Below are positions 30,267-53,562 of a stretch of DNA of 64,000 bases, piece after piece (within the stretch, counting starts at the first letter, position 1; each line of letters opens with the position of its first letter). The notes beneath the pieces were generated by a model that was not told where the DNA came from, did no database searches, and worked only from the letters and a program-made list of their open reading frames with translations. A program made the position numbers and the translations under genes. Source of the DNA: an uncultured Alphaproteobacteria bacterium (GTDB taxonomy: Bacteria; Pseudomonadota; Alphaproteobacteria; Methylaequorales; Methylaequoraceae); the NCBI GenBank assembly GCA_902537615.1, contig CACBBU010000002.1, positions 75,334 through 139,333 on the forward strand, given 5' to 3'.

Positions 30267-30321
30267 ATATACAATATAAAGTGTTATAAATTTAAATCAA
30301 ATACTATATATAGATTTTTAA

Positions 30322-31063: not shown

Positions 31064-31116
31064 AAGCTATATTATAGAATTTTAAAAAGCAGATTAAACA
31101 TAAATGTTAAAAATAA

Positions 31117-31813: not shown

Positions 31814-31839
31814 TTATTAAAATGTAATTTAGGTTTGAT

Positions 31840-32466: not shown

Positions 32467-34775
32467 AAAATAATAAAAAACCTGAAGATATCAAAATTTT
32501 GCAGGCAGAAATTGATAGATCTAAATTATTATTAAATATTTCTAGAAAAATTGCCTCAATTAAAAATCTCTCAGAAATACTATGGACTATTGTAGAGTTT
32601 GTTACAACCAATGTTGACGCTGATAGAGGAACATTATTTTTAAATGATGAAGAAACCAATGAATTATATTCAAGAGTTGCTCAGGGAGATTTAACAAGAG
32701 AAATTAGAATTTTGAATACTGTTGGAATTGCAGGAGGTATTTTTCAATCTCAAGTTGGTGAAATTATTCATGATGTTTACTCAGATAAAAGGTTTAACAA
32801 AGATGTTGACCAGGAAACTGGTTATAAAACAAAAAATATGATTTGTTCGCCAGTAAGAACTGTCAATGGAAAAATAATCGGAGTAATTCAAGTCTTAAAC
32901 AAAAATAAAGGAAGGTTTACTAAAGATAATTTAGAATTTGTAAATTCAGTTGCTACGCAAGCGGCTGTTTCAATACAAAATGCTCAGAATAATGAATTTT
33001 TTGAAAAAAAACGAGCTCAGGAAATGGAGTTCATAAGTATTGTTTCAGATGTAACTGCTGAAATTGATTTAAGTGCACTTTTGAAAAGAGTAATGGAAGA
33101 AGCGACGAGAATGCTTAATGCTGATAGAGCTACATTATTCTTGAATGATGAAAAAACTAATGAACTTTTTTCAAGAGTAGCTATGGGGGAAGGTATGGGA
33201 GAAATAAGGTTACCCAACACAGCAGGTATTGCTGGAAGTGTTTTTACTTCTGGTAAAACCATGAATATACCTTACGCTTATGCTGATTTGAGGTTTAATC
33301 CAGCATTTGATAAACAAACTGGATATTTTACCAGATCAATTTTATGCGTACCTGTAGTTAATAAAAACGGAAAAGTTATAGGTTGCACTCAAGTATTAAA
33401 TAAAAAAGGTGGTAAATTTACTGAAGAGGATGAATCAAGATTAAAAGCTTTCACTCAACAAGTTGCAATTGCTCTTGAAAACGCAAAATTATTTGATGAT
33501 GTGTCAAAATCAAGAAAATATAATGAAAGCATGCTTTCTAGCATGTCAAATGGTGTTATAACAATTGATGGTGACGGAAAAATTGTAACATGTAATAAAT
33601 CTGGTCTTAAAATTTTTAAAGTAAATGATAAAAACTTGATTGGATTAGATTCAAATAAGTTTTTTATAGATGAAAATAAATGGATTGAAGAAAAAATTAA
33701 TTTAGTTAGAGATTCTAAAGAACCAGAACTGATTATGGATGCTGAAATAGATGTTTTAAATCACGAAACCGAAAAAAATGAAATTATTTCAGTTAACCTA
33801 ACGATCTTACCTTTAATAAATGAAGACAGTGATGGAAGAACCGATGAAAAGGAGAGTTTTCTAGGTATTTTATTAATGATTGAAGATATTTCCTCTGAAA
33901 AGAGAATGAAGTCTACAATGTCAAGGTACATGGATCCTGGTATTGCAGATCAATTACTTGAAGATGGTGCTGACATAATGGGGGGTCTTGACACAACCGC
34001 AACACTCCTATTTTCTGATTTAAGAAGTTTTACGAATATTACTGAGTCTTTGGGTGCCCAAGGTACAGTTAAACTTTTAAATGAATATTTTGAAATTATG
34101 GTTGAGTGTATATCTGAACAAGGAGGTATGCTTGATAAATTTATTGGAGACGCAATCATGGCAGCTTTTGGATTACCTATTTCTCATGAAGATGATGAGG
34201 ATAGGGGTGTTAAGGCTGGTATCAATATGATTAAAAGACTTTGGGATTGGAACGATCAGAGAGAAAAAGATGGAAAACCTCCACTAGACATGGGACTGGG
34301 ACTTAATACTGATAAAATTGTAGCTGGAAATATTGGTTCACAAAAAAGAATGGATTACACTATGATTGGTGATGGGGTTAACCTTGCGGCAAGGCTTGAA
34401 AGTGCATGCAAACAATATAATGCTAGGATTTTAATTAGTGATTTTACTTTTAAAAAACTCAAAGGAACTTACAGAATTAGGTATATTGATGATGTTGTTG
34501 TTAAAGGTAAGACCGAACCGGTTGGAGTTCATGAGGTATTAGATTATCATAACGAAAAAACCTTTCCTAATCTTATGGACGTGGTTAATCATTTTAATGA
34601 AGGAAGGAAAAAATACATCTCTGGTGATTTTGATCAAGCTGTAACCTCGTTTAAAGAATGCTTAAAGATTAACTCTGAGGACAAATTATCAGAAACTTAC
34701 ATTAACAGATGTAATCAACTCATTTCTGAAAAACCAAAAAATTGGGATGGAGTTTGGGTTATGAAAAGTAAATGA
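32463..34775 (+). CDS. Soluble class III adenylate cyclase, GAF-GAF-PAS-CYC-TPR-like
   Basis: Two GAF domains (ADRxTLFL, NK..F..D), FSDLRSFT, DKFIGDAIMA, DYTMIGDGVNLAARLES, C-terminal WDG motif. Confidence 0.92.
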   Translation: MKNNKKPEDIKILQAEIDRSKLLLNISRKIASIKNLSEILWTIVEFVTTNVDADRGTLFLNDEETNELYSRVAQGDLTREIRILNTVGIAGGIFQSQVGEIIHDVYSDKRFNKDVDQETGYKTKNMICSPVRTVNGKIIGVIQVLNKNKGRFTKDNLEFVNSVATQAAVSIQNAQNNEFFEKKRAQEMEFISIVSDVTAEIDLSALLKRVMEEATRMLNADRATLFLNDEKTNELFSRVAMGEGMGEIRLPNTAGIAGSVFTSGKTMNIPYAYADLRFNPAFDKQTGYFTRSILCVPVVNKNGKVIGCTQVLNKKGGKFTEEDESRLKAFTQQVAIALENAKLFDDVSKSRKYNESMLSSMSNGVITIDGDGKIVTCNKSGLKIFKVNDKNLIGLDSNKFFIDENKWIEEKINLVRDSKEPELIMDAEIDVLNHETEKNEIISVNLTILPLINEDSDGRTDEKESFLGILLMIEDISSEKRMKSTMSRYMDPGIADQLLEDGADIMGGLDTTATLLFSDLRSFTNITESLGAQGTVKLLNEYFEIMVECISEQGGMLDKFIGDAIMAAFGLPISHEDDEDRGVKAGINMIKRLWDWNDQREKDGKPPLDMGLGLNTDKIVAGNIGSQKRMDYTMIGDGVNLAARLESACKQYNARILISDFTFKKLKGTYRIRYIDDVVVKGKTEPVGVHEVLDYHNEKTFPNLMDVVNHFNEGRKKYISGDFDQAVTSFKECLKINSEDKLSETYINRCNQLISEKPKNWDGVWVMKSK

Positions 34776-35494
34776 GAAATTATCCTTTTGAAAAGAATTT
34801 TCCTTCAATATCCTATATTGCTAATAATTGGCCAAGATCTAAAAATGTTCTAAAAAAATTCATTCTTTCAAATCATAAATTACCTAATTTATATAACTTG
34901 TGTTTGAATTGTTTAAATGATTTGAACGTTCGTAAGATAGATAGAATGAAACCAGTCTTAAAGAAACTATCAGTCCTTTGTATTAAGAATGTAACTTATA
35001 ATACTTATCATGATTCACATCATTTTAAGTCGGTTATAATTATTTCATGTTTACTAGCAAAATTGTCAAAGTTGAAAAACAATGAAGATAGGTTCCTTTT
35101 AATAATAATTGCACTTACTCATGATTTAGGTCATTTGGGAAGAAGAATACAAAAAAGATCGTTTTTTCAAGAGGAAAAAAGTTTCACTGAGTTGAGCAGA
35201 ATTTTATTTAAAGCAAAACCAATTTCAAAAAATAACAAAAGAATAAAAAAAATATTCAGAAGCACATATTTTCCTATTAAACCAGAAAAAGTTGAAGATC
35301 ATGTAGAAAAAATAATTTTAGATGCAGATATTTTATCATCACTTATGTTTGGTTTAGATGTTGGTGTTCAATTTGCAAGCAGGTTAAAACATGAATTAAG
35401 ATTTGAAGGTGGAACTAAACAGTTATTTTCTGGCTTTTTGAAATTCCTTGATAATAAGTCTTTATATCTAGATTCATCAAAAAAATCGTGTTAA
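34772..35494 (+). CDS. HD-domain phosphohydrolase, class I cNMP-phosphodiesterase-like
   Basis: YHDSHH, HDLGHLG, DADI; ATGA overlap with the cyclase stop. Confidence 0.7.
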   Translation: MRNYPFEKNFPSISYIANNWPRSKNVLKKFILSNHKLPNLYNLCLNCLNDLNVRKIDRMKPVLKKLSVLCIKNVTYNTYHDSHHFKSVIIISCLLAKLSKLKNNEDRFLLIIIALTHDLGHLGRRIQKRSFFQEEKSFTELSRILFKAKPISKNNKRIKKIFRSTYFPIKPEKVEDHVEKIILDADILSSLMFGLDVGVQFASRLKHELRFEGGTKQLFSGFLKFLDNKSLYLDSSKKSC

Positions 35495-35561
35495 TGTTTA
35501 AAAAATATGTTATTTTGTCGTTATTTTATTCACAATATGCAGTCTGTGGGTAACTTTTGTT

Positions 35562-36896
35562 ATGAAGTTTTTAATATTATTAATATTTGCTCTATTTTTT
35601 GATTCTGCTCTTAGCCAGGAAGAACAAAACGCCACTCCAGAAATTGAGTATTTCAATTTAGATTCTGCACTTAAAAGTGTCTTGAGAAATCATAAAATGA
35701 TTAAAGCTACCAAAAATGATGTAGAAGCAGCGAAATTTAGGTTAAAACAGTCAAGAGGTGGTTTTTTTCCTTCCTTAGATGTTACAGCAAACTATGGTCA
35801 TGAAAATATTATAAAATATGGTGCTGGAAATAATACTCAATTAGCAGCTAGAGACGCTACTGCTAAGATCACTCAAACAATTACTGACTTCGGTCTTACA
35901 AGGTCAACAGTTAAAACATCAAAGTTGTCCCTTAAACAAACAAGAGCGATGGAAAACCAAATCAAGAATGATATCTTATTAAGAGCTATAACCGCTTACT
36001 TAAGAGTAATTCAGTCACGAGAGAGTGTAAAATACGCTGTTCAGTCAGTCGCTAATATTAAAAAACAAACAGAATTAGAAGATGCAGCAGTTACCGCTGG
36101 TGGCGGCCTAACATCTGACGTACTTCAAGCTAAAACTCAGTTAGCAGGAGCGCAAGCACGACAAATTCAATTTGAAGGTGTTTTATCTGCTGCAAGACAT
36201 GAATTTGAATATGTTTTTGAAAGTTTTCCAAAAAATTTAAATAGTCTTCTTCTTTTACAATCTGTTTTTGATTCTTTACCTAAATCTCTTGAAGAGGCTG
36301 AAAAACTTACATTAAAAAATAATCCTTCATTAATAGCTGCGAGAATTACTGAGGAAATTAGTAAGGAAGGGATTAATACTGCGAAAGCAACTTTATTTCC
36401 AACTATTAAAGGTATAATAAGTCATTCTGAAAAACAAGATTTTGGAGGTATAGTCGGATTTAAAAGAGAAAGTTCAGCAAAGGTTGATTTTTCTTATCCT
36501 CTTAATTTAAGTTTATCGGAATACGCTGGAAAAGAGGCTGCTGTTGAATCATACTTAGCAACGTCTACAAGAATAAGAGATCAAGAATCAATGATAAAAC
36601 AAATGCTTAGAACTACTTGGGATGGTTTGTTAACAGCCCAAAAAAATGCTCAATTTTTAACAAATCAGGCAAGAATATCAAATGAATTTTTAGAGCTTGC
36701 CAGAACCGAAAGAAAAGCTGGCAACCGTACACTTTTAGACGTTTTAAATGGTGAAACGGCATTTATTAATGCGCAAGCTGATGCAATAGGGGCAAAAATT
36801 GAAGTTTTAATAAATAGTTATACTTTGTTAAGTTTAATGGGGGGACTAACTTTAGAAAGTGTTAAGTTGATACAACCAAAAAACGTTGAAAACTAA
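35562..36896 (+). CDS. TolC-family type I secretion outer-membrane protein
   Basis: Signal peptide, two OEP repeats (FFPSLDV, LFPTIKG), GNRTLLDVLNGE. Confidence 0.9.
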   Translation: MKFLILLIFALFFDSALSQEEQNATPEIEYFNLDSALKSVLRNHKMIKATKNDVEAAKFRLKQSRGGFFPSLDVTANYGHENIIKYGAGNNTQLAARDATAKITQTITDFGLTRSTVKTSKLSLKQTRAMENQIKNDILLRAITAYLRVIQSRESVKYAVQSVANIKKQTELEDAAVTAGGGLTSDVLQAKTQLAGAQARQIQFEGVLSAARHEFEYVFESFPKNLNSLLLLQSVFDSLPKSLEEAEKLTLKNNPSLIAARITEEISKEGINTAKATLFPTIKGIISHSEKQDFGGIVGFKRESSAKVDFSYPLNLSLSEYAGKEAAVESYLATSTRIRDQESMIKQMLRTTWDGLLTAQKNAQFLTNQARISNEFLELARTERKAGNRTLLDVLNGETAFINAQADAIGAKIEVLINSYTLLSLMGGLTLESVKLIQPKNVEN

Positions 36897-36905
36897 TTTT
36901 GTTTA

Positions 36906-39900
36906 ATGTTAAAAGAAATTAACTTTACTAATAAATTAAACGATGGCTCATTTACTAGTAGTCCGCCAGAGATACTTAGCTTTTACTCAGGAAATTCACT
37001 TAAGATAGAAAACTTACCTTCATGGTTACCAAAATCTGATTTTTCTAGAAATAACAGTGACTTAATTGCAACATCTCATGATGGTGATCAGATTATACTT
37101 GTTGATTATTTTACTAATTTTGAATTACCATCATTGTTAACTGAAAACGGTTTACTTTTGAATGGCTCTCTTGTAAGGTCACTAGCTGGTCCCCTAGCTA
37201 AGGGGCAATACGCTCAAGCAACTGATGGTAATGTTCTTTCTATTGGTGAGGTTTCCACTGTTTCTGGTACGGCAAAAGCAACAAGATTAGATGGTACAAC
37301 TACCAATTTAAATGCGGGGGATCCAGTCTTTCAAGGTGATACTATTGAGACTGAAGGTTCAGGAGCTGTAGGTTTAGTTTTTTTAGATAAAACAACACTT
37401 TCTCTATCTGATGGAGGAAAGATGGTTTTAGATGAGTTAGTTTACGATGCAGCAACAGGAACGGGCAGTATAGCTGTTGATATGCTTGAAGGTGCTTTCA
37501 GTTTTGTTAGTGGTGAAATAGCCAAAACCGGACCTGACGCAATGTCAGTTAAAACACCAGTAGCAGTTATAGGTATTAGAGGAACAACTGTTGCTGGAAA
37601 GGCAGCTGTTGAAGGAAATGAAAACAGTTTTACTTTACTGCAAGATGCAGATGGAGGAGTTGGACAAATTGCTGTAAGTAACGATGGAGGCACACAAGTT
37701 TTAGCTCAGGTTGGTGCAACAACAAGTATTTCAAGTTTTACTGCTCCACCACCACCACCAGTAATTTTAACTACAGCACAAATTCAAGCCAATTATGGTA
37801 CTGCACTTAATGTGTTACCCCCAACGCCTGCTGTAGCACCACAGCCACAACCTGCACCACCTCCACAAGAACAAGTTCAGGAAGAACAGGCTCAAGAAGA
37901 AGCTGCTGAAGAGGAAGGTGAAGAAGAAGCCGGTGAAGAACAAGTAACTGAGGAAGGTCCTGCAGAAGAAGAAGGTGAAGGAGAAGGAGAAGAGGGTCCC
38001 CCTGAAGGAGAGGAAGGTCCACCAGTTGGACCTGATGGAGAACCTCTTGCTGAAGGTGAGGGTCCCCCTGAAGGAGAAGAAGGTGGTCCTCCTGAAGGTG
38101 AAGAAGGACCCCCTATTGGACCAGATGGAGAAGTATTAGCTGAAGGAGAAGGGGGTCCACCTCTTGGCCCAGATGGAGAACCGTTACCACCTGGAGAAGG
38201 GGGTCCTCCCGTAGGCCCAGATGGAGAACCATTGCCACCTGGTGAAGGAGGTCCACCTCTTGGCCCAGATGGAGAACCGTTACCACCTGGTGAAGGCGGC
38301 CCACCTCTTGGCCCGGATGGGGAACCATTACCACCTGGAGAAGCTGGCCCTGGTGGCCCTGGAGATTTTGGTCCTGGCGGTCCTGGCGGACCCGGAGATT
38401 TGGGTGGTCCTGGCGGACCATCGCCTGAACAAGAAGAAGTTGCAAGAGAAGCATTTGAAACAGCACTAGCCGATGGGTTAAGTCCAGAGCAAGCTATGGC
38501 AGCAGCTGCAGAAGCCGCTGGTCTTCCAGTTCCTCCTGGAGGCTTTGGACCTGGTGGGCCTGCTGGGCCTGGAGGTTTTGGACCTGGTGGCCCTGGAGAC
38601 TTTGGCCCTGGTGGTCCTGGTGGACCTGGTGGCCCTGGAGACTTTGGCCCTGGTGGCCCCGGAGACTTTGGCCCTGGTGGCCCTGGAGACTTTGGACCTG
38701 GTGGTCCTGGAGATTTTGGACCTGGCGGCCCTGGAGATTTTGGTGATCCTTTTGGTGGTCCTGGTGGATTTGGTGATCCCTTTGCTGGTCCTGGGGATTT
38801 TGGTGATCCTTTTGGTGGTCCAGGTGGCCCTGGTGGACCCGGTGACCCGTTTGGTGGCGGCCCTGATGGATTTGGTGATCCCTTTGGTGGTCCTGGAGGC
38901 CCTGGTGGACCCGGTGATCCGTTTGGTGGCGGCCCTGGTGGATTTGGTGATCCCTTTGGTAGTCCAGGAGGACCGGTTGGTTTAGGCGGCCCTGGTGGTC
39001 CTGGAGATTTTGGACCTGGTGGTCCTGGCGGTTTCGGTGGCCCTGGAGGTCCCGGAGATTTTGGTGGCCCTGGTGGCATGGTACCTGGACAATTTATGGG
39101 TGCTCAACCGCCTGGAACTGCAACATTTGCTCCAGCTGGAGCGTTTGGCTCCCCAATAGTTGGTTTTAGTTCAGGCCCTATTGGAGGTTTTGGCCCTGAT
39201 CCATATGGTGGTCCAATGAGTGGTCCAATGGGTGGTCCTGGAGGATTTGGTGACCCTTTTGGTGGTCCAATGGGAGGACCTGGAGGTTTTGGTGACCCTT
39301 TTGGTGGTCCAATGGGAGGACCTGGAGGTTTTGGTGATCCCTTTGGTGGCCCAATGGGAGGGCCTGGAGGTTTTGGACCTGATCCTTATGGAGGACCTGG
39401 AGGTTTTGGCCCTGATCCATTTGGTGGTCCTATGGGAGGACCCGGAGGTTTTGGTGATCCTTTTGGTGGACCTATGATGGGTGGTACTGAAAATTATGTT
39501 GAACCTATGAATTATTTTTTTGATGATCCTTCTCTATATATGGGTTTTTTCGAACCGGAACTTTTTGAAGTGGAAGAAAGTGGTGGTAGCGGAAGCGGAA
39601 GCGGAAGCGGAAGCGGAAGTGGAAACACTATTACTGGTACTAATAATGTTGACTCTGAAGATAAATCAACATCTACTGATGCATGGAAATTTCTTGGTTA
39701 TAGTGGAAATGATAATTTTAAAGGTGGTAGCGGGAATGATATATTTTTTGGAGGATTAGGAGCCGATGATTTAACTGGTAATGGAGGAAGTGATACCTAT
39801 TTCTTTTCTGATTTTCTTGAGGGTGCTGATACAATTAGGACGTTCAGTGCAGCTGATACTTTAAAATTTGGTTATAATTTTACAAATAATTATTCTCGAT

Positions 39901-40259
39901 CATTAAGCTTTACATCTGATAGTGGTGCAAATGGCTCTGTGTATAATATTGGGGCTAGCAGTGGAATCCTTCCTATTGTTTTTAACTTTACAGCAAATAA
40001 TTCAAATCATAATACATCTGCTGGAGTTGCAAATTTCCTAAGTAATTTTAGAGTTACAACTGATGGAAGCACTGATATATCAACTGTTGAAGATGCTCTT
40101 CTTGTAACTGGAAATGGTGGTACTACAAGTTTATGGGGGTGGCAAAACAGTGCATCTAACGGTACTGTTGAGCAGACTGAGTTAGTTCGTTTAGCTACAC
40201 TTAATAGTTATGATAATGATACTATGGCTGCATCTAATATTGCTATTGGAGTCTTGTAA
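36906..40259 (+). CDS. Large FecR-domain, Gly/Pro-rich, RTX-repeat putative T1SS substrate (1117 aa)
   Basis: No Sec signal; FecR-like region (IGEV..VSG, GDPVFQGD, TPVAVIGIRGT); acidic and G/P repeats; four GGxGxD nonapeptides at 39696-39803. Confidence 0.85.
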   Translation: MLKEINFTNKLNDGSFTSSPPEILSFYSGNSLKIENLPSWLPKSDFSRNNSDLIATSHDGDQIILVDYFTNFELPSLLTENGLLLNGSLVRSLAGPLAKGQYAQATDGNVLSIGEVSTVSGTAKATRLDGTTTNLNAGDPVFQGDTIETEGSGAVGLVFLDKTTLSLSDGGKMVLDELVYDAATGTGSIAVDMLEGAFSFVSGEIAKTGPDAMSVKTPVAVIGIRGTTVAGKAAVEGNENSFTLLQDADGGVGQIAVSNDGGTQVLAQVGATTSISSFTAPPPPPVILTTAQIQANYGTALNVLPPTPAVAPQPQPAPPPQEQVQEEQAQEEAAEEEGEEEAGEEQVTEEGPAEEEGEGEGEEGPPEGEEGPPVGPDGEPLAEGEGPPEGEEGGPPEGEEGPPIGPDGEVLAEGEGGPPLGPDGEPLPPGEGGPPVGPDGEPLPPGEGGPPLGPDGEPLPPGEGGPPLGPDGEPLPPGEAGPGGPGDFGPGGPGGPGDLGGPGGPSPEQEEVAREAFETALADGLSPEQAMAAAAEAAGLPVPPGGFGPGGPAGPGGFGPGGPGDFGPGGPGGPGGPGDFGPGGPGDFGPGGPGDFGPGGPGDFGPGGPGDFGDPFGGPGGFGDPFAGPGDFGDPFGGPGGPGGPGDPFGGGPDGFGDPFGGPGGPGGPGDPFGGGPGGFGDPFGSPGGPVGLGGPGGPGDFGPGGPGGFGGPGGPGDFGGPGGMVPGQFMGAQPPGTATFAPAGAFGSPIVGFSSGPIGGFGPDPYGGPMSGPMGGPGGFGDPFGGPMGGPGGFGDPFGGPMGGPGGFGDPFGGPMGGPGGFGPDPYGGPGGFGPDPFGGPMGGPGGFGDPFGGPMMGGTENYVEPMNYFFDDPSLYMGFFEPELFEVEESGGSGSGSGSGSGSGNTITGTNNVDSEDKSTSTDAWKFLGYSGNDNFKGGSGNDIFFGGLGADDLTGNGGSDTYFFSDFLEGADTIRTFSAADTLKFGYNFTNNYSRSLSFTSDSGANGSVYNIGASSGILPIVFNFTANNSNHNTSAGVANFLSNFRVTTDGSTDISTVEDALLVTGNGGTTSLWGWQNSASNGTVEQTELVRLATLNSYDNDTMAASNIAIGVL
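38151..38342 (+). repeat. Four tandem 48-nt repeats encoding GGPP(L/V)GPDGEPLPPGE
   Basis: Read directly; two degenerate copies lie just upstream. Confidence 0.9.
38540..39480 (+). repeat. Gly/Pro/Phe/Asp low-complexity coding repeats (GPGGPGDF, GGPGGFGDPF, GGPMGGPGGFGDPF)
   Basis: Read directly from the translation; GC-rich but with A/T-biased third codon positions. Confidence 0.9.
39588..39617 (+). repeat. (AGCGGA)x5 encoding a Ser-Gly linker
   Basis: Perfect hexamer tandem repeat, in frame. Confidence 0.9.
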
Positions 40260-40470
40260 ACCATAAAATGATTATGTAATAGTAATTTTTATACTATGTC
40301 TTTTACGTTATTTACTTATTGCTATAACATTTTGTTTTTCAGAACATTTGCATTCTCGTAAATTATTCTTATAATAAAATCTGTATTGACTTTTAAAGTA
40401 TCTGCACAAACAACATTTTAGAAAGTTTTCAACTTAAATTACTAAAGTAAAATCTTGACATTTTAATATA

Positions 40471-40493
40471 TCCACAGTTTATTAAACTGTGGA
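40471..40493. promoter_or_regulatory. Perfect inverted repeat TCCACAGTTT-ATT-AAACTGTGGA (operator-like), downstream of TTGACA at 40455-40460
   Basis: 10-bp perfect arms ending 20 nt upstream of the 40514 start. Confidence 0.55.
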
Positions 40494-40513
40494 AAAAAAA
40501 TAGTCTTTGCAGT

Positions 40514-43213
40514 ATGTACAACACCAAAGTTTTTAACAATTTATCTGAATCAATTTTTGCTGGTAACTCAACAGCAGTTAACAATCTTCCTTCTTGGCTA
40601 TTAAAGTCTGATTTTTCTAGAAACAATACTGACTTAATAGCCACATCTCCAGATGGTGATCAACTTATACTCGTTGACTATTTTACTAATTTTGAATTAC
40701 CAAACTTATATACTATTAATGGACTTCATCTTAAAGGTAATGCTGTAAATTATTTAGCAGGACCGTTAGCAAAGGGGCAATACACTCAAGCTGCTGATGT
40801 TAATATCCTTTCTATTGGTGAGGTATCAACAGTTTCCGGAACTGTAAAATCAACAAGATTAGACGGTACAACAACAAATTTAAATGTAGGAGACCCTGTT
40901 TTTCAAGGAGACACAATTGAGACTGAAGGTTCAGGAGCTGTAGGATTAGTTTTTTTAGATAAAACAACATTTTCTCTCTCTGATGGAGGAAAGATGATTC
41001 TGGATGAGTTGGTTTATGATGCAGCAACGGCAACTGGAAGTATGGTAGTTAATATGGTTGAAGGAGCATTTAGTTTTATAAGTGGTGAAATAGCTAAAAC
41101 TGGACCTGATGCTATGACGCTTGAAACTCCAGTTGTTACAATGGGTATTAGAGGAACAACTGTTGCTGGTAAAGCAGCAGTGGAAGGAAATGAAAATAGT
41201 TTTACCTTACTTCAAGATGCAGATGGTGGAGTTGGACAAATTTCTGTAAGTAATGATGGAGGAACACAAGTTTTAGCTCAGGTGGGAGCTACAACAACTG
41301 TTTCAAGTTTTACTGCAGCACCCCCAGCACCAATAATTTTGTCCGCAGCACAGATTCAAGCTAATTATGGTACTGCACTTAATGTATTACCACCAACTCC
41401 GGCGGTAGCACCACAACCACAAGCTGCTCCTCCCCCTCAAGAAGAAACTCAAGAGGAACAGACTCAAGAAGAGGAGGCTGCAGAAGAAGAAGGTGAAGAA
41501 GAGGGTGGTGAGGAACAAGTGGCAGAGGAAGGTTCTGAAGAAGGAGAAGGTGAGGGTGAAGAAGGTCTACCTGAAGGAGAGGGAGAAGGAGAAGAGGAAG
41601 GAGAAGAGGAAGGAGAAGAGGGTCCACCTGAAGGAGAAGAAGGAGAAATTTCTGATTCTGGTGGGGACTCATTAGCAAGTGATGAAGCAGCAAGTGGACC
41701 TCCAGAGGGTGAAACAGGGTCTGTTACTGAAGAGTCAGGAACATCAGAGGAGCAAGTTGCAGCAGCAGAAGCTTTTGATACAGCACTTGCAGCAGGTGCT
41801 AGTCCAGAGCAAGCTATGGCTGAAGCAGCTGAAGTTGCCGGACTAGAAGGACCAGAGCAGGCTACTTCAATTCAATCAAATAATCCTAATTCTTTATCAA
41901 ACCCAATGTCGGGAAATGCTAACCCAATGATAGCTCCGGTGAACGCTATAATGGCAAGTGGAGCTCCTGCCTATGCGGGAATGATGGGAGTATCAATGGG
42001 TCCAACAGATATGATGAGTGGCCCGGCTGGACCAGCAGCTATGGCAGGACCCTTAATAACAGGTGCAACAGATTTACTTGGAGCGCCTATAGGACCTGCT
42101 TTTGGCGATATATACTCGCAATCTGAAGTTGAAGTAATTCAGGAGTCTTTTTTCTTTGATGATCCAAGTTTGTATAATGTTGATATGGAAGAAGAGGAAC
42201 CAGAAACCACTGAAATTAACTCTTTTTATATTAACGGAACAAGTGACTTTGGAAGAACAATTTCTGATTTTTCTTTGTCTCAAACACTTACAATTAATTT
42301 TACTTTTGATGAACCAGTCTCAACTCACTCTGTAACAAGGTCAAACTTTTATGAATATACTAGCACTGTTGCTACAACATCTTTATCATGGGACTCAAAA
42401 CCATCAACAACAGCACAAATAGTTAATGAAACAGAACCAAATGGTACTTTTGGTTCTGCTCAAGTTATTGCAAGATCAAGATTTAAAATAGCCACAAATT
42501 CCGATGTTGGTGACGATAGTATTCCATGGGTGAAAATACAGGGTGGATACATCAATAACGGCATTGATATTTTTAAGGTGGACCTACAAGCTGGCGAGAC
42601 GTTAACTGTTGATATAGACTATGGTGATTCTTATAGTATAGATTTTAATTCTTATGTAACAATGTGGAATCAAGCCCTATCTTCTATTGTTGCTGAAAAT
42701 GATGATTCTGCTATTTCATTAGGAGGTGCAGGTAGTTCTGGAACAGAGGATTCATATTTTACTTACACTACCAGTACAACAGAGTCATTTTATCTTTTAG
42801 TTGAAGATGCGCCTTATAATAGAAATTCAAGTACAAGAGGTGATTTTGTATTAAATCTTAGTATTTCACCAACAAGTAGTTCTACGGGATTAGGGACAAG
42901 TTCAACCTCGGCTGTGGGAGGTGATAATAAATTACCCTATTTATTTAATTTTACAGAAAACACGAATAATTATAATACAAAGTCATTTAGATCAGATGTC
43001 GTCTCTTCAATAAAATATACTGATTCTACAAGTGGGACGGGCAGTGAAGTTTTTTTGGTTGTAGGTGACGGTACTAATAGTGCTATATGGTTGTGGGATG
43101 ATTTATCTGAAGGATATGGAATATCTACTAACGAACTTACACTTGTAGCAACACTACCAAACTTTGACAATGATACACTTACCGGCTCTGAAATAACATT
43201 TGGTACAATTTAA
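40514..43213 (+). CDS. Second FecR-domain putative T1SS substrate with PPC-like insertion (899 aa)
   Basis: FecR region nearly identical to the 36906 gene; ETEPNGTF..AQ and DIFKVDLQAGETLTVDID (PPC-like); shared C-terminal ELxxxATLxxxDNDT; no RTX nonapeptides. Confidence 0.85.
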   Translation: MYNTKVFNNLSESIFAGNSTAVNNLPSWLLKSDFSRNNTDLIATSPDGDQLILVDYFTNFELPNLYTINGLHLKGNAVNYLAGPLAKGQYTQAADVNILSIGEVSTVSGTVKSTRLDGTTTNLNVGDPVFQGDTIETEGSGAVGLVFLDKTTFSLSDGGKMILDELVYDAATATGSMVVNMVEGAFSFISGEIAKTGPDAMTLETPVVTMGIRGTTVAGKAAVEGNENSFTLLQDADGGVGQISVSNDGGTQVLAQVGATTTVSSFTAAPPAPIILSAAQIQANYGTALNVLPPTPAVAPQPQAAPPPQEETQEEQTQEEEAAEEEGEEEGGEEQVAEEGSEEGEGEGEEGLPEGEGEGEEEGEEEGEEGPPEGEEGEISDSGGDSLASDEAASGPPEGETGSVTEESGTSEEQVAAAEAFDTALAAGASPEQAMAEAAEVAGLEGPEQATSIQSNNPNSLSNPMSGNANPMIAPVNAIMASGAPAYAGMMGVSMGPTDMMSGPAGPAAMAGPLITGATDLLGAPIGPAFGDIYSQSEVEVIQESFFFDDPSLYNVDMEEEEPETTEINSFYINGTSDFGRTISDFSLSQTLTINFTFDEPVSTHSVTRSNFYEYTSTVATTSLSWDSKPSTTAQIVNETEPNGTFGSAQVIARSRFKIATNSDVGDDSIPWVKIQGGYINNGIDIFKVDLQAGETLTVDIDYGDSYSIDFNSYVTMWNQALSSIVAENDDSAISLGGAGSSGTEDSYFTYTTSTTESFYLLVEDAPYNRNSSTRGDFVLNLSISPTSSSTGLGTSSTSAVGGDNKLPYLFNFTENTNNYNTKSFRSDVVSSIKYTDSTSGTGSEVFLVVGDGTNSAIWLWDDLSEGYGISTNELTLVATLPNFDNDTLTGSEITFGTI

Positions 43214-43274
43214 TACATTTAGTTGTTTTTATTTATAATAGAATGATTATTAATATTTATGTAAACTAATTTTC

Positions 43275-44861
43275 ATGTCTTACTGGCTTCAAGTACTTAA
43301 AAATAGTGGATCACTAGGAACAATTATTATTTTATCAGTCTTGATAACTATAATGGGTTTATTAAGCCCTATTTTTATAATTCATATTTTTAATAGATAT
43401 ATATCTTTTGGCCTTGAAGGTACTTTAATTTTTCTAATGTTAGGTGCATTATCAGTAGCTATATTTGAATTTTTTTTTCGTAATTTACGAAACAAAGTCT
43501 TTTCAAAGATAATAATAAATCCGATACAAGTTACAAAGCTTGATTTTATAAAGAATTATTTTACTAGAATTGGTAAGAATAGAAAAAAATTATCTGAATC
43601 TATTGATATCAATAATCAATTTTATCAATATTTATCACCCATAAATCAATCAAATATGTTTGATTCATTATTTGTTATAGTAATAATATTATTTCTTTTT
43701 TTTCTAAGTAAGATTTTAACAGGAATTTTTCTAACAATAATTACTCTATACTTGTTAATACAAAAAAAAATTGATGATAACAAAAAAAGTTTTATTAACA
43801 AAAATAAATTCAGTTCTTATGATAATCAAATAATAAAAGAATTAAGTTTAAATAGTGAATTTCTTGATACACAGGATTCGTTAAAATATGTTGGTTATAA
43901 TTTAAAGCAATATTTAGAAAAAAAATTATTCAATGACTCAAGTTTATCAACTTTTGATAATTATCAATTTTCGTCTAATCATCTTCTTATCCTTTTTTCG
44001 TCAATTGTTATAATTGGTTTTGGGGCAGTACTAGTTGTTAACGGGCAACTTTCTGTTGGAAGCTTAATTGGTTTTAATATTTTTTCTTCAAGAGCGTTAG
44101 TCTTAGCCTCTGGTGCTCAGAGATCGTATTTAAATTTGACTGGTTTAAATACTCTTATAGTATCCTCTTATGAAAAGTTAAAAGGTTCAAAAGAGAGATA
44201 TCAGGGAATGCAATTAAATACTATTACTGGTAATATAAAATTAAATAAAATTGACTTTTCTTATGATAAAAGTGACTTTTTATTTAGAAATTTGAATATT
44301 TCAATTAACCCAGGGCAATTGTTTTGTATCTCTGGTTCAAATGGTAGTGGAAAAACTACTCTTTCAAAAATACTGATGGGAATTTTAGAACCAAGTGCTG
44401 GTGAAGTTCTTGTTGATGGGACTAATTTAAATAAATTATCACTAAAGTGGTGGAAGAAACAAGTAGCCTATATTCCTCAAAACCCAAATATTTTGAATTC
44501 TTCAATTATGGATAATATCCTGCTAGGCAATGATAAATTAAATGAACAAGAAGTGAGTAGATTACTCCAAACTGTGGGTTTGGATCAAAAATTAAAAAAA
44601 ACATCCCTAACTATTCTTGAACCGATTGAGGATAATCTTTCAAAAGGTGTAAAAAAAAAAATTCATTATGCTAGAGCTTTAGCTCAAAATTCTAAAGTTT
44701 TTATAATAGATGATCCATTTGGTTATTTAGATAACCAAGGGATCCAAATAGTACAAAAAATAATTGAATCTTTTAAAAGAGCAAATAAAACAGTAATTTT
44801 ATTCTCAGACAACGATATTTTTTCTAATGTTATAGATGAGAACATTAGGATAGGAGATTAA
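43275..44861 (+). CDS. T1SS ABC transporter (TMD-NBD, no C39 domain; degenerate NBD)
   Basis: HIFNRYIS TMD, LIGFNIFSSR, GSNGSGKTT, YIPQ, LSKGV, IIDDP. Confidence 0.85.
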   Translation: MSYWLQVLKNSGSLGTIIILSVLITIMGLLSPIFIIHIFNRYISFGLEGTLIFLMLGALSVAIFEFFFRNLRNKVFSKIIINPIQVTKLDFIKNYFTRIGKNRKKLSESIDINNQFYQYLSPINQSNMFDSLFVIVIILFLFFLSKILTGIFLTIITLYLLIQKKIDDNKKSFINKNKFSSYDNQIIKELSLNSEFLDTQDSLKYVGYNLKQYLEKKLFNDSSLSTFDNYQFSSNHLLILFSSIVIIGFGAVLVVNGQLSVGSLIGFNIFSSRALVLASGAQRSYLNLTGLNTLIVSSYEKLKGSKERYQGMQLNTITGNIKLNKIDFSYDKSDFLFRNLNISINPGQLFCISGSNGSGKTTLSKILMGILEPSAGEVLVDGTNLNKLSLKWWKKQVAYIPQNPNILNSSIMDNILLGNDKLNEQEVSRLLQTVGLDQKLKKTSLTILEPIEDNLSKGVKKKIHYARALAQNSKVFIIDDPFGYLDNQGIQIVQKIIESFKRANKTVILFSDNDIFSNVIDENIRIGD

Positions 44862-44864
44862 ATT

Positions 44865-46142
44865 ATGACAAAGAAATGGGTTAATTGGAATGAAAATGAA
44901 TTGATTAATGAATCAAATGCTGAATTTGTGTATTCAACCAAATTTAAACTTTTAATTTTTTCGTTTTTGATAACTTTTTTCTTACTTATTAATTTAAGAA
45001 TTATAGAAGTTTTAAGTTTGGCGGATGGTAAAGTAATTCCACAAGGAAGAATAAAGTATGTTCAGCATTTAGAAGGGGGAATTGTTGAGGAAATCTTGGT
45101 AAATGAAGGTGAAAAGGTTGAAATTAATCAACCTTTGGTAATTTTATCTAAAGAAAGAGCAACATCAGATTTTGAGGAAATCAATACAAGGTTGAGATCA
45201 ATTGATTTGTCAATTTTGAGAATTAATGCTGAAAAAAAAGGAAAAAGATTACTCATTTTAACTGATAATAAAAATAAATATGATCCAGAACAATTAAATT
45301 TTGAACAAGAGCTTTTAAAAAGTCGCTTAGATTCAATAGATTCTGAAAGAAAATCAAAAAAATCATCTATAGAAAAAGCCAACAATAATCTAAAAAACTT
45401 AAAAAAAAGGCTTAATATTGTTAAAGAGCAGGAATCCATAAGTCAAAAACTTTTAGAGGCCGAGGCAACTAATAGATTGAGGCACCTTGAGCTTTTACGT
45501 GAATTATCTGATGTTGAAGCTAAAATTGACGAACAAAAATCTATTATTACTATTTCTAAAACAGATTTAGACAAAGTTAATAATAATTACAATGAACAAT
45601 TAAATAAGGAATTATCTGACCTAAAAAAAGAAAGAATTGAGTTAAATAAAAGGATTGGAAAGTTTTCAGATAGTTTGAAAAGAACTGTTCTCAAAAGTCC
45701 AGTTTCAGGAACAGTAAAATTAATTTCAGTTAATTCAAAAGGTGCTATTGTTACTCCAGGAGTAACTGTTGCCGAAATTGTTCCAGAGGATGAAAAATTA
45801 ATTATTGAAGCTAACTTGCCATTATCAGAAATTGGATATATTTCAGTAGGTCTAAATACAAAAATTAGATTAAATACGCCAGAGGGTTCACGTTTTAAAC
45901 CTATTAGTGGAAAAGTAGTTTTTGTAAGTGCTGACAGGACATCAACTAAAAATGAGGAAGAGGATTATTATCTTGTTAAAATTGAAACAAATGAAACATC
46001 TTTTACGAAGCAAAATGAGAGTTTTAGATTATATTCTGGGGTACCGGTAGTCGTCGGAGTAATTACAGGAAAGAGAAGCTTTGTTGACTATTTTTTAACA
46101 CCTTTTAAATCAGGTTTGTCCTTTGCTTTTTCGGAAAGATAA
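44865..46142 (+). CDS. HlyD-family T1SS membrane fusion protein
   Basis: GKVIPQGRIKYVQHLEGGIVEEILVNEGEKV, SPVSGTV, GKRSFVDYFLTP. Confidence 0.93.
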   Translation: MTKKWVNWNENELINESNAEFVYSTKFKLLIFSFLITFFLLINLRIIEVLSLADGKVIPQGRIKYVQHLEGGIVEEILVNEGEKVEINQPLVILSKERATSDFEEINTRLRSIDLSILRINAEKKGKRLLILTDNKNKYDPEQLNFEQELLKSRLDSIDSERKSKKSSIEKANNNLKNLKKRLNIVKEQESISQKLLEAEATNRLRHLELLRELSDVEAKIDEQKSIITISKTDLDKVNNNYNEQLNKELSDLKKERIELNKRIGKFSDSLKRTVLKSPVSGTVKLISVNSKGAIVTPGVTVAEIVPEDEKLIIEANLPLSEIGYISVGLNTKIRLNTPEGSRFKPISGKVVFVSADRTSTKNEEEDYYLVKIETNETSFTKQNESFRLYSGVPVVVGVITGKRSFVDYFLTPFKSGLSFAFSER

Positions 46143-46144
46143 AT

Positions 46145-46803: not shown

Positions 46804-46805
46804 AA

Positions 46806-49463: not shown

Positions 49464-51827
49464 CTATTTACTTGTTGCAACGTAAACACCGTCCCAATCT
49501 TTTGGAGGAGGGGAGGTCTTAAATTCATCAATTCTTTGTTTCATTATTTCATAGTATTCATTCATTAAATTATTACAAAGATTTTTTGCCAAATCCATTT
49601 CATTTAAACACTTTTCCCATTCTTGTCTAAAGTAATTTTTTAGGATATTTTTATGCTTTTCTTCTAAAGTTTTAAACTCATTACTTTTTTTAAACTCTGA
49701 ATCACCAGCTAAAGTAAATATTGTTACAGCTTCTTTTTTTCCTTTAACAGCAATCATATCCAATTGTAATGTTGCATATAAATCTTTTACACTTTCGTTA
49801 GTTTCTGGACCAATTACTGTTTTTACACCATAGCTTTTTGATTGCCCCTCAAGTCTAGCAGCTAGATTAACAGAATCACCAAGAACTGAATAATCAAATC
49901 TCTGGTCAGATCCCATATTACCAACAACACACCCACCAGTGTTTAAACCAATACCAATCTTTAACTCTAAATATTTTTTATTTTCAGATTTCGCTTCCTT
50001 TTCTCTTTCAGCATTTAGATCCGCCATTACAGCATGCATTTTGAGAGTAGCATCACAGGCCATTTTTTCATGACCATCAACATCAATTGGAGCATTCCAA
50101 AAAGCCATAATACAATCTCCCATATATTTATCAATCGTGCCATTAACGTTGATAATTTCATTAGTAAGAGGTGTTAAGAATCTATTTATTAATTTAGTTA
50201 AACCTTGTGGATCCGATTTAAAAGATTCTGAAATAGTGGTAAATCCTCTTACATCACAAAATAAAAATGTCATTTTTTTAGTTTCCCCACCTAAAACTAA
50301 TTTATCAGGATCTTCTGCTAGTTGCTCTACCAATGCCGGAGAAAGATATTGTGAAAAAGCACCGCGAATCTGTTTTTTTTCGTTTGCATCTCTTAAATAG
50401 TTGGCAAAAGTGTTCCCAAAATATATTAAAAAAGTAGAAACACCTGCAAAAGTTGGGTCAAATAATGTTTTTTCTTCCAGAAAAAGCTTTAAACTTATAT
50501 AAAAAGCAGTGCTTATAACCGCGACCAATAAAGAAATATTTACAATCGGACCAAACCTAAGTGCTGATATTGTTATAAAGAACCCCAAAAGTATTGTAAA
50601 AATTCCTTCATAAAACTTCATATTTGTTCCAGATTTTAAGAAGGGAGAACCTGAAATTTTCACTTTATTTTTTTCATTTAGAGCCTCTTCTTCAGTCATT
50701 CCATTTTTAATTGCTTTCTTATACGCTATATCAGCATTCTTTGTGGAAGTATAAAATAATATAGCGGAGATTACTGTATCAATCAGATTAGCGTGTATTT
50801 CAACACCAGGCATTCTATCTTCAACAGGTGTAAACCTAATGTCTTTAAGACCTGTTGCTGATGTTCCAAGAATTCCTAACTTTCCCTGAAGTCTCTCTTT
50901 TCCAACTCTTCCTTTGATAATGTCTGCAGCACTGACATAATATCTTTTCTCTTTTTTAATAGAATCAGATTCACCATAATAAATCCAAACCCTTCCATTT
51001 TCATCTGTAGGAATTGCTGCATTACCAATTGCCTTTGTTTGAATTATAATTTCCTCAACACCGTTTATTCCAGTTCTTGTCGCAATACTGTTACCTTGAA
51101 ATGCAACTCTTATCATTTCTAGACCAAGTGTTGGTCTTACAGTTCCAGCAACATCTGAAATTAACGGTACACGTCTTATAATTCCATCTGGTTCTTCGGC
51201 AACAGACACAGTTCCTGCACCAGATGCTGCTTGCTCAAATTCAGTAACATTAGCCAATAATCCAGGATAGGTTATTAACCAATTTTTTGGATTCTTGTTT
51301 TTACCCAAAAAAACTTTAACAGAGGTATCTCTTATATCATCTCGTTCCGCATCACCAGTAACGTCAAGACCAGAGTGACCAATTACAGTCGGAAAGGTTT
51401 TCATAACATCTCTTGCAATAGACTCATTAGACGGAAGTTTCTTAAGAATATCAGCTACTTTTGGATTTCTTTTTTCTAGATCCCTTGCTATTAAAGTTGG
51501 GGATGTTCTGTCCTTTTCAGCAAATAATACATCTAGTCCAAGAACTAGCATACCAGATTCTTTGGACTTTTGAAAAAGCTCAGCTAAAACTGTTCTGGGC
51601 CAAGGCCATTGACCAATCTCTCGAAGTGACGCCTCATCAATATCAACTATTACAGAATAGGTTTGACCATCTGTAGATCTTGGGTATTTTTTTTGAAGTT
51701 GATCAAAATACTTTAGTCTCATTACTTCAACTACTTGCGGGTCAATAATCCTTACTCCACCTAAAATAATGGCCGCAATTATTGAAAGTAATGTAACTAT
51801 GAGTCTAAAACTTAATTTTAATTTCAT
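49464..51827 (-). CDS. CHASE2-domain membrane adenylate cyclase
   Basis: IVDIDEASL..IGQWPWPR, MPGVEIHAN, three TM helices, FCDVRGFT, DKYMGDCIMAFWNAP, GDSVNLAARLEG; ATG at 51827 lies 1 nt after the HlyD stop. Confidence 0.93.
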   Translation of the reverse strand: MKLKLSFRLIVTLLSIIAAIILGGVRIIDPQVVEVMRLKYFDQLQKKYPRSTDGQTYSVIVDIDEASLREIGQWPWPRTVLAELFQKSKESGMLVLGLDVLFAEKDRTSPTLIARDLEKRNPKVADILKKLPSNESIARDVMKTFPTVIGHSGLDVTGDAERDDIRDTSVKVFLGKNKNPKNWLITYPGLLANVTEFEQAASGAGTVSVAEEPDGIIRRVPLISDVAGTVRPTLGLEMIRVAFQGNSIATRTGINGVEEIIIQTKAIGNAAIPTDENGRVWIYYGESDSIKKEKRYYVSAADIIKGRVGKERLQGKLGILGTSATGLKDIRFTPVEDRMPGVEIHANLIDTVISAILFYTSTKNADIAYKKAIKNGMTEEEALNEKNKVKISGSPFLKSGTNMKFYEGIFTILLGFFITISALRFGPIVNISLLVAVISTAFYISLKLFLEEKTLFDPTFAGVSTFLIYFGNTFANYLRDANEKKQIRGAFSQYLSPALVEQLAEDPDKLVLGGETKKMTFLFCDVRGFTTISESFKSDPQGLTKLINRFLTPLTNEIINVNGTIDKYMGDCIMAFWNAPIDVDGHEKMACDATLKMHAVMADLNAEREKEAKSENKKYLELKIGIGLNTGGCVVGNMGSDQRFDYSVLGDSVNLAARLEGQSKSYGVKTVIGPETNESVKDLYATLQLDMIAVKGKKEAVTIFTLAGDSEFKKSNEFKTLEEKHKNILKNYFRQEWEKCLNEMDLAKNLCNNLMNEYYEIMKQRIDEFKTSPPPKDWDGVYVATSK

Positions 51828-51828
51828 T

Positions 51829-53562
51829 TTATGGCTCCGCAAAACTATTACCTAATGTCCTTATTAAAGGATAAATAAAATAGGTAATAAGTTTTCTTTT
51901 ACCAACTCTAAACTTTCCTGAAACCTTCATTCCTGGCATTAGATTAAATCCAGGCGGTGTGTCTTTCAGCTCATTTCCAGTGATTTGCGCTCTTGCTCTG
52001 TAAAAGTTACCGGAGTTTCCATCTACATCCTCATCTACTGTATCAGCAGAAACATAAATAAGTTTTCCTTTCAACTCTCCATGCTTTTGAGCTGGTAAGG
52101 CGTTTAATTGTATTTTAACTGATGTGTCAGGAATTAATTTACTTATATCAGATGGATCAACATCAAAAACAGTAAGTAACTCAACTCCTGTTGGAACAAG
52201 TGTTACTACACTTTTACCTTTGGTTATTACAGCGCCTGAATAAAGAGAATGAAGGTCTAGTACCATTCCGTCAGAAGGTGCCCTTACAATAACATCAGTT
52301 TGTCGCCTTTCCAGTTTCTTCAAGTCCTCTTGCATACTCATACGTTGATCCTCTAAGGAAACAAGTTCGTCATTTATTCCACCAAAAAACTGGCTTGTGT
52401 ATTCCTTTCTATTGGATTTAAGCTCACTAAGTTTATTACTTGTTTTGGTAAATTCCTTTTCTAAAGATAATCTTTTATTTTTTTCAGCTAAGACCTGTGA
52501 TTCAGCAACTAGATCTAAATCAAAAAGTTCTTTTTTTGAATTTTCAAGCTGCTTTTGAATATCCAACTGTTCCTTTACGTATTTTAAATCATCTTCTGTG
52601 GATGATATTTGTTGATCTAGAGATGCTTTTTTGGCTAAGTATTGATCTTTTTTGTCTTTAAAAATTTTATTTTGTCTTTCATCTTTAGGGTCGCTGACAC
52701 TAATACTCGTTCTTAGTAATGATTGCTTTTTTAATCTATCAATTTTTGAATTTATAACACTAAGCTGATAATTAAGTTTCATTCTATCAGCTTTCTGAAG
52801 GGTTGAATCAAAAGTGAGAAGAGCTTCTCCTTTTTTTATGCTTTGTCCTTTTTTAACATAGATATCTTTAACAACTGAATCAAAGTTTGATTGAACTTCA
52901 ACATTCGGAACAATTGTTGTTATTTTTCCTGATGCAGTAATTGTTGTATCTACTTCAGAGATAGATCCCCACAGAATTAAAAAAAAAACTAAAAAAGCAA
53001 AAGAGTATACGGAATATTTTACAGATTTAGGGACAGCTTTAGATTTTATTCTATCAATATCGTCATCAAATTCATCTAATAACTCATTCATCAATTCAGA
53101 ATTAACTTTTTTCTTCTTTTCTTCTTCGGATAATTCTTTTTTATCGTTATCTTCATCAACCTGGCTAGAATCTGAATCAGAACTGAAAGCATCAACTGAC
53201 AGTTTTTCATTAGCATTTCTTGCGTAGCTTGCTAATTGTTGCATCATATTAAAAGCTGTTTGAGGAGAGTTTTTTAGGTAACCTAATAATGCATCTTTAT
53301 CTATTTCTTTAACTACTGCCTCATCAACAGCTCTAGCCATTGCACTTCTAGGTTGTTTATCTATTAAGGCCATTTCACCAAAAAGAGCATTTTTTTCTAA
53401 AATTGAAAGTGTTACATATTCGTCACCATTAAACTTACAAACTTCAATTTTTCCTTTGACAACTTGGTAAGCATAATCACCTACCTCACCCTCTCTAAAT
53501 AGAACATCTCCAGCAGCTAAATTTCTTAATGCGGGTTGTGTAGTTTTTTTCTGTTTACTCAT
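51829..53562 (-). CDS. cNMP-binding domain fused to HlyD-family membrane fusion protein
   Basis: N-terminal LFREGEVG and FGEMALIDKQPRSA; acidic linker; TM helix; RAPSDGMV, LMPGMKVSG, GKRKLITYFIYP. Confidence 0.9.
   Translation of the reverse strand: MSKQKKTTQPALRNLAAGDVLFREGEVGDYAYQVVKGKIEVCKFNGDEYVTLSILEKNALFGEMALIDKQPRSAMARAVDEAVVKEIDKDALLGYLKNSPQTAFNMMQQLASYARNANEKLSVDAFSSDSDSSQVDEDNDKKELSEEEKKKKVNSELMNELLDEFDDDIDRIKSKAVPKSVKYSVYSFAFLVFFLILWGSISEVDTTITASGKITTIVPNVEVQSNFDSVVKDIYVKKGQSIKKGEALLTFDSTLQKADRMKLNYQLSVINSKIDRLKKQSLLRTSISVSDPKDERQNKIFKDKKDQYLAKKASLDQQISSTEDDLKYVKEQLDIQKQLENSKKELFDLDLVAESQVLAEKNKRLSLEKEFTKTSNKLSELKSNRKEYTSQFFGGINDELVSLEDQRMSMQEDLKKLERRQTDVIVRAPSDGMVLDLHSLYSGAVITKGKSVVTLVPTGVELLTVFDVDPSDISKLIPDTSVKIQLNALPAQKHGELKGKLIYVSADTVDEDVDGNSGNFYRARAQITGNELKDTPPGFNLMPGMKVSGKFRVGKRKLITYFIYPLIRTLGNSFAEP

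Follow-up and report, generated by a model that had tools for sequence, protein, structure and literature searches.

The RTX adhesins MpIBP of Marinomonas primoryensis and LapA of Pseudomonas fluorescens are tethered to the cell through TolC/LapE by an N-terminal retention module, in a two-step version of the type I secretion system (T1SS). The N-terminal domain of the Marinomonas ice-binding adhesin, RIN (structure 5IX9), is described as periplasmic, unaffected by removal of Ca2+ and too large for TolC (PMC5550230), and the same structure was the template on which LapA's retention module was modelled (bioRxiv 10.1101/198937). A second group of described systems centres on CHASE2, a widespread sensor domain of cyclases and histidine kinases whose input is reported as unknown: in Sinorhizobium meliloti, NsrA and the CHASE2 cyclase CyaK are both needed for signal perception (PMC7529298), the gene clusters of CHASE2 cyclases in Campylobacterota also encode an outer-membrane protein with a FecR domain, a TPR protein and a phosphodiesterase (PMC9239204), and in Burkholderia a LysM-FecR protein is encoded beside a CHASE2 histidine kinase (PMC5192318). 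Our literature search found no paper joining CHASE2 with type I secretion or RTX proteins, nor any describing the gene cassette considered here. That cassette lies in a 64,000-nucleotide stretch (the window, to which all coordinates below refer) of contig CACBBU010000002.1 from an uncultured alphaproteobacterium of the order Methylaequorales, and is built around ‘cargo 1’, a protein of 1117 residues encoded by an open reading frame (ORF) that is open from 36906 to 40259 on the plus strand.

The explanation that we favour, and in which our confidence is about even, is that the N-terminal head of cargo 1 would be retained in the periplasm as the plug of a surface-tethered T1SS substrate, and would there partner a CHASE2 adenylate/guanylate cyclase encoded downstream (49464..51842, minus strand; Pfam CHASE2 at E 1.7e-47, together with Guanylate_cyc). 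Cargo 1 has four parts, namely a folded N-terminal region, a linker of ~580 residues, a short RTX block and a C-terminal beta-roll domain. The first-pass annotation, made from the letters of the window, had claimed a folded N-terminus with a FecR-like domain, and this is borne out both by a Pfam FecR match at residues 145-232 (E 9.5e-7, 29.6 bits, cut-off 24) and by an AlphaFold2 model of residues 1-320 (pLDDT 76, pTM 0.75), in which a small beta domain (23-95) is followed by a long beta-sandwich (114-275) and a helix (290-302). The head is also the most conserved part of the protein, with 64-95% identity across genera, while the remainder varies in sequence and length (homologues range from 619 to 1499 residues).

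We are highly confident that the FecR match and the LapA/MpIBP retention plug are one module (residues 114-275; 37245..37730, plus strand), because the retention_LapA family, 5ix9 and the FecR/PupR folds all align there. The NCBIfam model retention_LapA (NF033682) covers residues 114-178 in both cargo 1 and its paralogue, at 26.3 bits against a cut-off of 50. With Foldseek, 5ix9 fits the first 65 columns of the module (TM 0.77, rmsd 1.5 A, 32% identity), and a profile of the module also finds 5ix9_A by sequence (E 1.7e-10). Over ~155 columns, the Foldseek matches are 4m0h and 4m0n, which are C-terminal domains of FecR-type anti-sigma factors, and 6ovk_R, the signalling domain of PupR (probability 1.0, TM ~0.5). 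The plug is thus the first half of a FecR-type fold, and the whole module is the FecR/PupR fold, here predicted to fold without calcium. A phmmer search with residues 102-300 (E up to 0.001) returned 14,980 cluster representatives; the best 137 of these are mostly 600-3000 residues long, with the module near residue 100 or N-terminal, and 77 of the 102 long proteins among them carry RTX-like motifs.

The evidence that ties this module to CHASE2 comes from gene linkage, beginning within the order itself, of which we sampled 42 genomes from 14 genera. In the genome to which the window belongs (1.23 Mb, 79% complete), CHASE2 is encoded once and the FecR domain twice, in cargo 1 and in its neighbouring paralogue, cargo 2. 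Across the order the head occurs in 32 of the 42 genomes and CHASE2 in 33; all nine high-quality genomes have both, and in ~20 genomes the two lie on one contig, ~10 kb apart.

Outside the order, the 46 Rhodospirillales loci that we collected usually run TolC, cargo, ATP-binding cassette (ABC) transporter, HlyD. At least five of the 46 have a CHASE2 cyclase adjacent or in the operon, and at least two others have a HlyD set with a cyclic-nucleotide-monophosphate (cNMP)-binding domain, counts that are lower bounds as many of these loci are incomplete. Independent, compact loci bring the parts together: the CHASE2 cyclase directly follows HlyD in L047 and L058; a metagenomic relative (L017) packs TolC, CHASE2 cyclase, cargo, ABC and HlyD together; and a second, divergent set in genome G009 (L018) has cargo, TolC, an ABC fragment, HlyD and CHASE2 cyclase. 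Cyclases without CHASE2 that lie near three further loci (L051, L075, L079) were not counted as support; cyclases are probably numerous in those genomes.

Wider sampling of alphaproteobacteria gave the same association. In 20 near-complete genomes, a FecR-domain ORF lies no more than 10 kb from 20 of the 35 CHASE2 genes, and in a sample of 151 genomes a CHASE2 gene lies within 16 kb of 22 of the 51 module ORFs of at least 800 residues (19 genomes, 19 families) and of 26 of the 92 smaller ones, where chance would give ~2%, a rough estimate from about two CHASE2 genes per 4-Mb genome. Among loci retrieved as examples, L094 is a single operon of cargo, CHASE2 cyclase, ABC and HlyD, and L099 one of TolC, cargo, ABC, HlyD and CHASE2 cyclase. 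Judged from gene positions, then, the linkage of module and CHASE2 is far beyond chance, and extends across the order, its Rhodospirillales relatives and 19 alphaproteobacterial families. Small CHASE2-adjacent proteins with Sec-type signal peptides match the hidden Markov model (HMM) of the module at E 1e-23 to 4e-35, and their signal peptides imply that the module is periplasmic when delivered by the Sec route. The constant neighbour of the module in both delivery modes, T1SS and Sec, is CHASE2.

Some individual loci depart from these patterns in ways worth recording. Locus L096 (G095:C1:510001-530000) holds three tandem units, each of a module-headed protein of ~975 residues and a CHASE2 gene or fragment, and may represent a recent amplification of the module/CHASE2 pair as a unit. 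In a Rhodospirillaceae metagenome-assembled genome (MAG; PBPM01000067.1, L016), the TolC/cargo/ABC/HlyD set follows genes for two cNMP-binding proteins, for a metallophosphoesterase and for an MMPL transporter that itself has a cNMP-binding domain, with no CHASE2 gene within 10 kb; this may be a different way in which cyclic nucleotides are linked to this T1SS. A HlyD with an N-terminal cNMP-binding domain, accompanied by an ABC transporter with a C39-like domain, also occurs beside module-headed cargo loci in two Rhodospirillales MAGs (L073, L091).

It is, in our judgement, very probable that the flanking TolC/ABC/HlyD system has cargo 1 and its paralogue as substrates, because cargo 1 has an RTX match and a beta-roll C-terminus and no hydrophobic N-terminal stretch or Sec signal peptide was found in it, and because the TolC gene ends 9 nt upstream and genes for ABC and HlyD follow. 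The C-terminal region (RTX beta-roll plus capping/secretion domain, residues 907-1117; 39624..40256, plus strand) gives a confident AlphaFold2 model of a beta-roll plus cap (residues 881-1117, pLDDT 88.8), for which Foldseek finds C-terminal domains from the T1SS lipase 2z8x, AlgE6 R-modules, serralysins and CyaA block V. Here the first-pass annotation, which had described RTX repeats followed by a T1SS-type C-terminus, holds for the RTX match (Pfam HemolysinCabind, PF00353, residues 931-964, 25.5 bits, cut-off 23) and the beta-roll, and needs trimming as to the repeats, since the RTX block is short, with one Pfam match and two nonapeptides fitting the GGxGxDxUx consensus, at residues 940 and 949.

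Between head and C-terminus runs the long disordered acidic Gly/Pro linker that had likewise been claimed, and its composition and repeats agree with that description. Gly makes up 35.5% of residues 301-880 and Pro 22.9%, with Glu at 9.3%, Phe at 7.2% and Asp at 6.0%; the stretch has 89 acidic residues against one basic, and consists of tandem repeats such as GPGGPGDFGPG and GGPGGFGDPFGGP; no Pfam domain matches there, and Ig-like (immunoglobulin-like) extender repeats were not found. The low-complexity linker proper, predicted to be disordered, spans residues 315-880 (37848..39545, plus strand), with tandem repeats at the DNA level also. The window has a GC content of ~27%, and it is because this linker is encoded there that 38001-40000 reaches 52%. 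Embedded in the linker is a conserved helical island, AREAFETALADGLSPEQAM (residues 513-531; 38442-38498, plus strand), whose consensus A-R-E-A-F-x-T-A-L-A-x-G-x-S-P-E-x-A-M recurs in 71 of 121 close-family proteins and 29 of 137 distant representatives.

Two further elements flank the module. Ahead of it is a pre-domain (residues 23-95, with the motif DLIATSHDGDQIILVDYF; 36972..37190, plus strand) that is modelled with strands at 23-79 and block-mean pLDDT of 71-92, and that appears to resemble the BapA-prefix or haemolysin-related type; one homologue (P0145) has a weak biofilm_BapA_N match. The module starts near residue 100 in 100 of the 137 distant representatives, so a similar N-terminal stretch precedes it there. 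Behind the module, a conserved Pro-rich segment with a helix (residues 281-314, PPPPPVILTTAQIQANYGTALNVLPPTPAVAPQP; 37746..37847, plus strand) has columns P282-P314 nearly invariant among 31 homologues and the modelled helix at 290-302, and may form the neck where the protein enters TolC.

The CHASE2 proteins of the family have a peculiarity of their own, a helical insertion of ~38 residues (~351-388; 50679-50792, minus strand) placed after the CHASE2 domain and ahead of the following transmembrane segment (TM2). It was found in all nine family CHASE2 proteins examined and is missing from those of L017, L018 and L059; the protein of L064 has another, longer insertion at the same point. By eye the cargo island AREAFETALADGLSPEQAM and this insertion are alike, a candidate relationship that was rejected when an HMM of 54 cargo instances scored the insertion at E = 52, at about rank 19 of the 4809 ORFs of the genome.

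Because the module is homologous both to the MpIBP plug, which is periplasmic and has been characterised by experiment, and to the retention module of LapA, the most likely topology has a periplasmic N-terminus and an external C-terminus. On the favoured explanation, export would proceed C-terminus first, the RTX beta-roll would fold outside the cell and the 580-residue acidic Gly/Pro/Phe thread would hang from the cell surface, until export stalled at the N-terminal beta-sandwich, which would be too large for TolC and would leave the head in the periplasm. There the cyclase at 49464-51842 would have the head as protein partner for its periplasmic CHASE2 domain, synthesis of cyclic AMP (cAMP) would reflect whether the tethered surface thread is present, lost or under load, and the cAMP would feed the cNMP-binding HlyD of a second T1SS, an HD-domain protein and a soluble cyclase. 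Our data show the domain anatomy, the plug homology, the FecR fold, the T1SS setting and the strong, recurring linkage to CHASE2; retention, contact with CHASE2 and the direction in which the signal runs we infer, and the parts of the scheme deserve different degrees of belief. Some functional coupling of cargo to the CHASE2 cyclase is likely, and retention of the head in the periplasm is somewhat probable; direct contact between head and CHASE2 falls a little short of probable, and it is a more tentative idea still that the retained plug of a T1SS-tethered protein would be the physiological ligand of CHASE2, with occupancy, loss or mechanical load of the thread read as cAMP. The trans-envelope antenna of the first-pass annotation accordingly has comparative support at two of its three inferred steps, the homology to a periplasmic plug and the linkage to CHASE2.

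Set beside MpIBP and LapA, cargo 1 shares an N-terminal plug, homologous to RIN (5IX9) and predicted to be calcium-independent, a C-terminal RTX and secretion domain, its own TolC/ABC/HlyD set alongside, and a flexible segment behind the plug that could thread TolC. It differs in that the plug is extended to a full FecR-type fold with an extra domain in front, that the extender is a 580-residue acidic Gly/Pro/Phe thread rather than a series of Ca-dependent Ig-like repeats, and that the second messenger would be cAMP, from CHASE2 and GAF cyclases, rather than the cyclic di-GMP that acts through LapD in Lap systems (LapD was not searched for). With NsrA-CyaK (and CyaD1/D2) of S. meliloti and with the Campylobacterota cluster it shares the pairing of a CHASE2 adenylate cyclase with a surface-reaching envelope protein, and the analogy to NsrA drawn in the first-pass annotation holds insofar as a CHASE2 cyclase has a partner linked to the outer membrane; with the Campylobacterota cluster it further shares a FecR-type domain on what would be the periplasmic side and a candidate phosphodiesterase nearby. 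In contrast, the link to the surface would be a T1SS substrate passing through TolC instead of an outer-membrane protein of the beta-barrel type (neither barrel nor TPR domains were found by Pfam in cargo 1 or the neighbours scanned), such that TolC in trans would replace the barrel, and the cyclase is encoded in a second, convergent T1SS operon.

The alternative that survives best, though we consider it unlikely, is that cargo 1 is a surface or coat protein tethered in the ordinary manner of LapA and MpIBP. The CHASE2 cyclase and the other cAMP genes would do no more than control its expression or secretion from the inside out, and CHASE2 would sense an unrelated periplasmic or external cue and make no contact with the head. 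Plug homology and T1SS context speak for it, the cytoplasmic cAMP components of the cluster (GAF cyclase, HD protein, cNMP-binding HlyD) could steer secretion directly, and the second messenger of the Lap system does act inside-out (bioRxiv 10.1101/198937). What it leaves unexplained is why small Sec-exported module proteins, which have no T1SS, should lie beside CHASE2 genes and why so many CHASE2 genes have FecR-domain neighbours; the constant partner of CHASE2 is the module and not the pump.

Less probable again is one-step secretion with full release of cargo 1 to seawater, the head working outside the cell or as a transient secretion intermediate and the linkage to CHASE2 reflecting shared regulation. 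Most RTX proteins are released, the C-terminus of cargo 1 is like those of released enzymes, and the LapG protease that was not found in the 42 genomes would not be needed if nothing were retained. The ABC transporter, too, is of the short type without a C39-like domain, which is typical of released proteases and lipases. Such a fate sits poorly with a head predicted to be a stable beta-sandwich of ~160 residues behind a further 70-residue domain, whose closest solved relative is a plug that reportedly folds independently of Ca2+ and exceeds the size that TolC can pass, and whose conservation across genera, set against free variation elsewhere in the protein, suits fixed cellular partners. Finally, although the module shares with the C-terminal signalling domain of FecR/PupR (6OVK; PF04773) and with a Bacteroidetes anti-sigma factor both its fold and, for FecR/PupR, the periplasmic protein-protein signalling role of that fold, it is very improbable that the head binds the signalling domain of an outer-membrane transducer and controls an extracytoplasmic function (ECF) sigma factor instead of a cyclase, as cargo 1 has neither an anti-sigma N-terminal domain nor a transmembrane helix, has the architecture of a substrate delivered by T1SS and not by membrane insertion, and has no Pfam match to a sigma factor or TonB-dependent transducer among the neighbours scanned.

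Returning to the retained head as partner of the CHASE2 cyclase, several observations weigh against it. In none of the 42 genomes of the order was the protease LapG (Peptidase_C93, PF06035) found, on which ground LapG-dependent release was rejected; the di-alanine site is not conserved, DAAT at residues 181-184 (AA 182-183) becoming DPxTG in the consensus of homologues; and the ABC transporter lacks the N-terminal domain typical of LapB-type exporters, its TIGR03375 match starting at profile position 141, with only 61 nt between the ABC gene and the gene upstream of it. Of the LapA model that the first-pass annotation had invoked, there remain the homologue of the N-terminal plug, the RTX C-terminus and the TolC/ABC/HlyD set, and there fall away LapG, the di-alanine site, the C39-like domain and the Ig-like repeats. 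The retention_LapA match scores below its cut-off, and ~110 further residues stand ahead of the plug of cargo 1, compared with a plug at the very N-terminus in LapA and MpIBP. As regards CHASE2, over half of the large module proteins of the 151-genome sample lack a nearby CHASE2 gene, the helical motif seemingly shared by cargo and CHASE2 protein failed the HMM test, and the FecR-domain gene smc02177 of S. meliloti is reported to be dispensable for perception of the plant signal (PMC5498481). The CHASE2 cyclase to which the first-pass annotation had tied cargo 1 is not encoded next to it: the CHASE2 gene lies 9.2 kb downstream on the other strand, in a convergent operon, and the cyclase within the operon of cargo 1 is a soluble one of the GAF-GAF-PAS type, so that regulation could be purely cytoplasmic.

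Cargo 1 belongs to a run of plus-strand genes, from 31840 to 46142, with short or overlapping gaps. The run opens with a coiled-coil protein (start 31840) and continues with the soluble GAF-GAF-PAS cyclase (32463-34775; Pfam), an HD-domain protein whose gene overlaps that of the cyclase (34772-35494; Pfam), the TolC-family outer-membrane channel (35562..36896; Pfam OEP, TIGR01844), cargo 1, cargo 2 (40514..43213), the T1SS ABC transporter (43275..44861; 528 residues, with neither a C39 nor a C39-like domain by Pfam and NCBIfam) and the HlyD-family membrane-fusion protein (44865..46142; TIGR01843 at 300 bits, above cut-off). Downstream, on the minus strand, is the convergent set, composed of a second TolC, a 252-residue protein with no family match, an ABC transporter with a C39-like domain, its partner HlyD with an N-terminal cNMP-binding domain (51829-53562), the CHASE2 cyclase and a DUF1538 protein. 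A scan of 30200-47000 for promoters and terminators gave counts not above those of shuffled sequence and hence carries no information on the limits of the operons.

Cargo 2, a paralogue of 899 residues, has a head like that of cargo 1 (83% identical over 286 residues), a different middle and a related C-terminus, the last 96 residues of cargo 1 being 33% identical to it. To the eye its middle (residues ~640-790) resembles a beta domain of the pre-peptidase C-terminal (PPC) type, EPNGTF...DIFKV...GETLTVDID...YYLLV, for which there is no Pfam match at E up to 0.01, and which may be the ligand-binding part of cargo 2. Motif comparison of the cargo-linked ABC transporter shows a Walker B motif that ends in DD instead of DE and an H-loop in which His is replaced by Asp, Glu or Asn. 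Both changes are common to most loci of the family (L020-L046), while the Rhodospirillales relatives retain DEP and SHD, and they may represent a lineage-specific degenerate ATPase site in the expected homodimer.

What this locus offers is a candidate for the input of CHASE2, namely a FecR-fold module that would reach the periplasm through Sec export or, in a T1SS substrate, as the head at which secretion stalls. If this is true, outside-in signalling through a secretion channel would be added to the inside-out paradigm of the Lap systems, and a FecR-fold foot reporting to CHASE2 would apply also to the Sec-exported and outer-membrane-barrel versions in other bacteria; the thread in the present case would be an elastic, acidic Gly/Pro/Phe-rich chain in a lineage of marine bacterioplankton with small genomes. 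Our comparisons suggest that in RTX adhesins the plug responsible for retention is a truncated FecR fold, and that plugs of this kind can have partners in signalling. The cassette is conserved in this marine alphaproteobacterial order and, because few signalling genes are kept in genomes so small, it probably plays an important part in the sensing of surfaces, of particles or of the cells' own coat.

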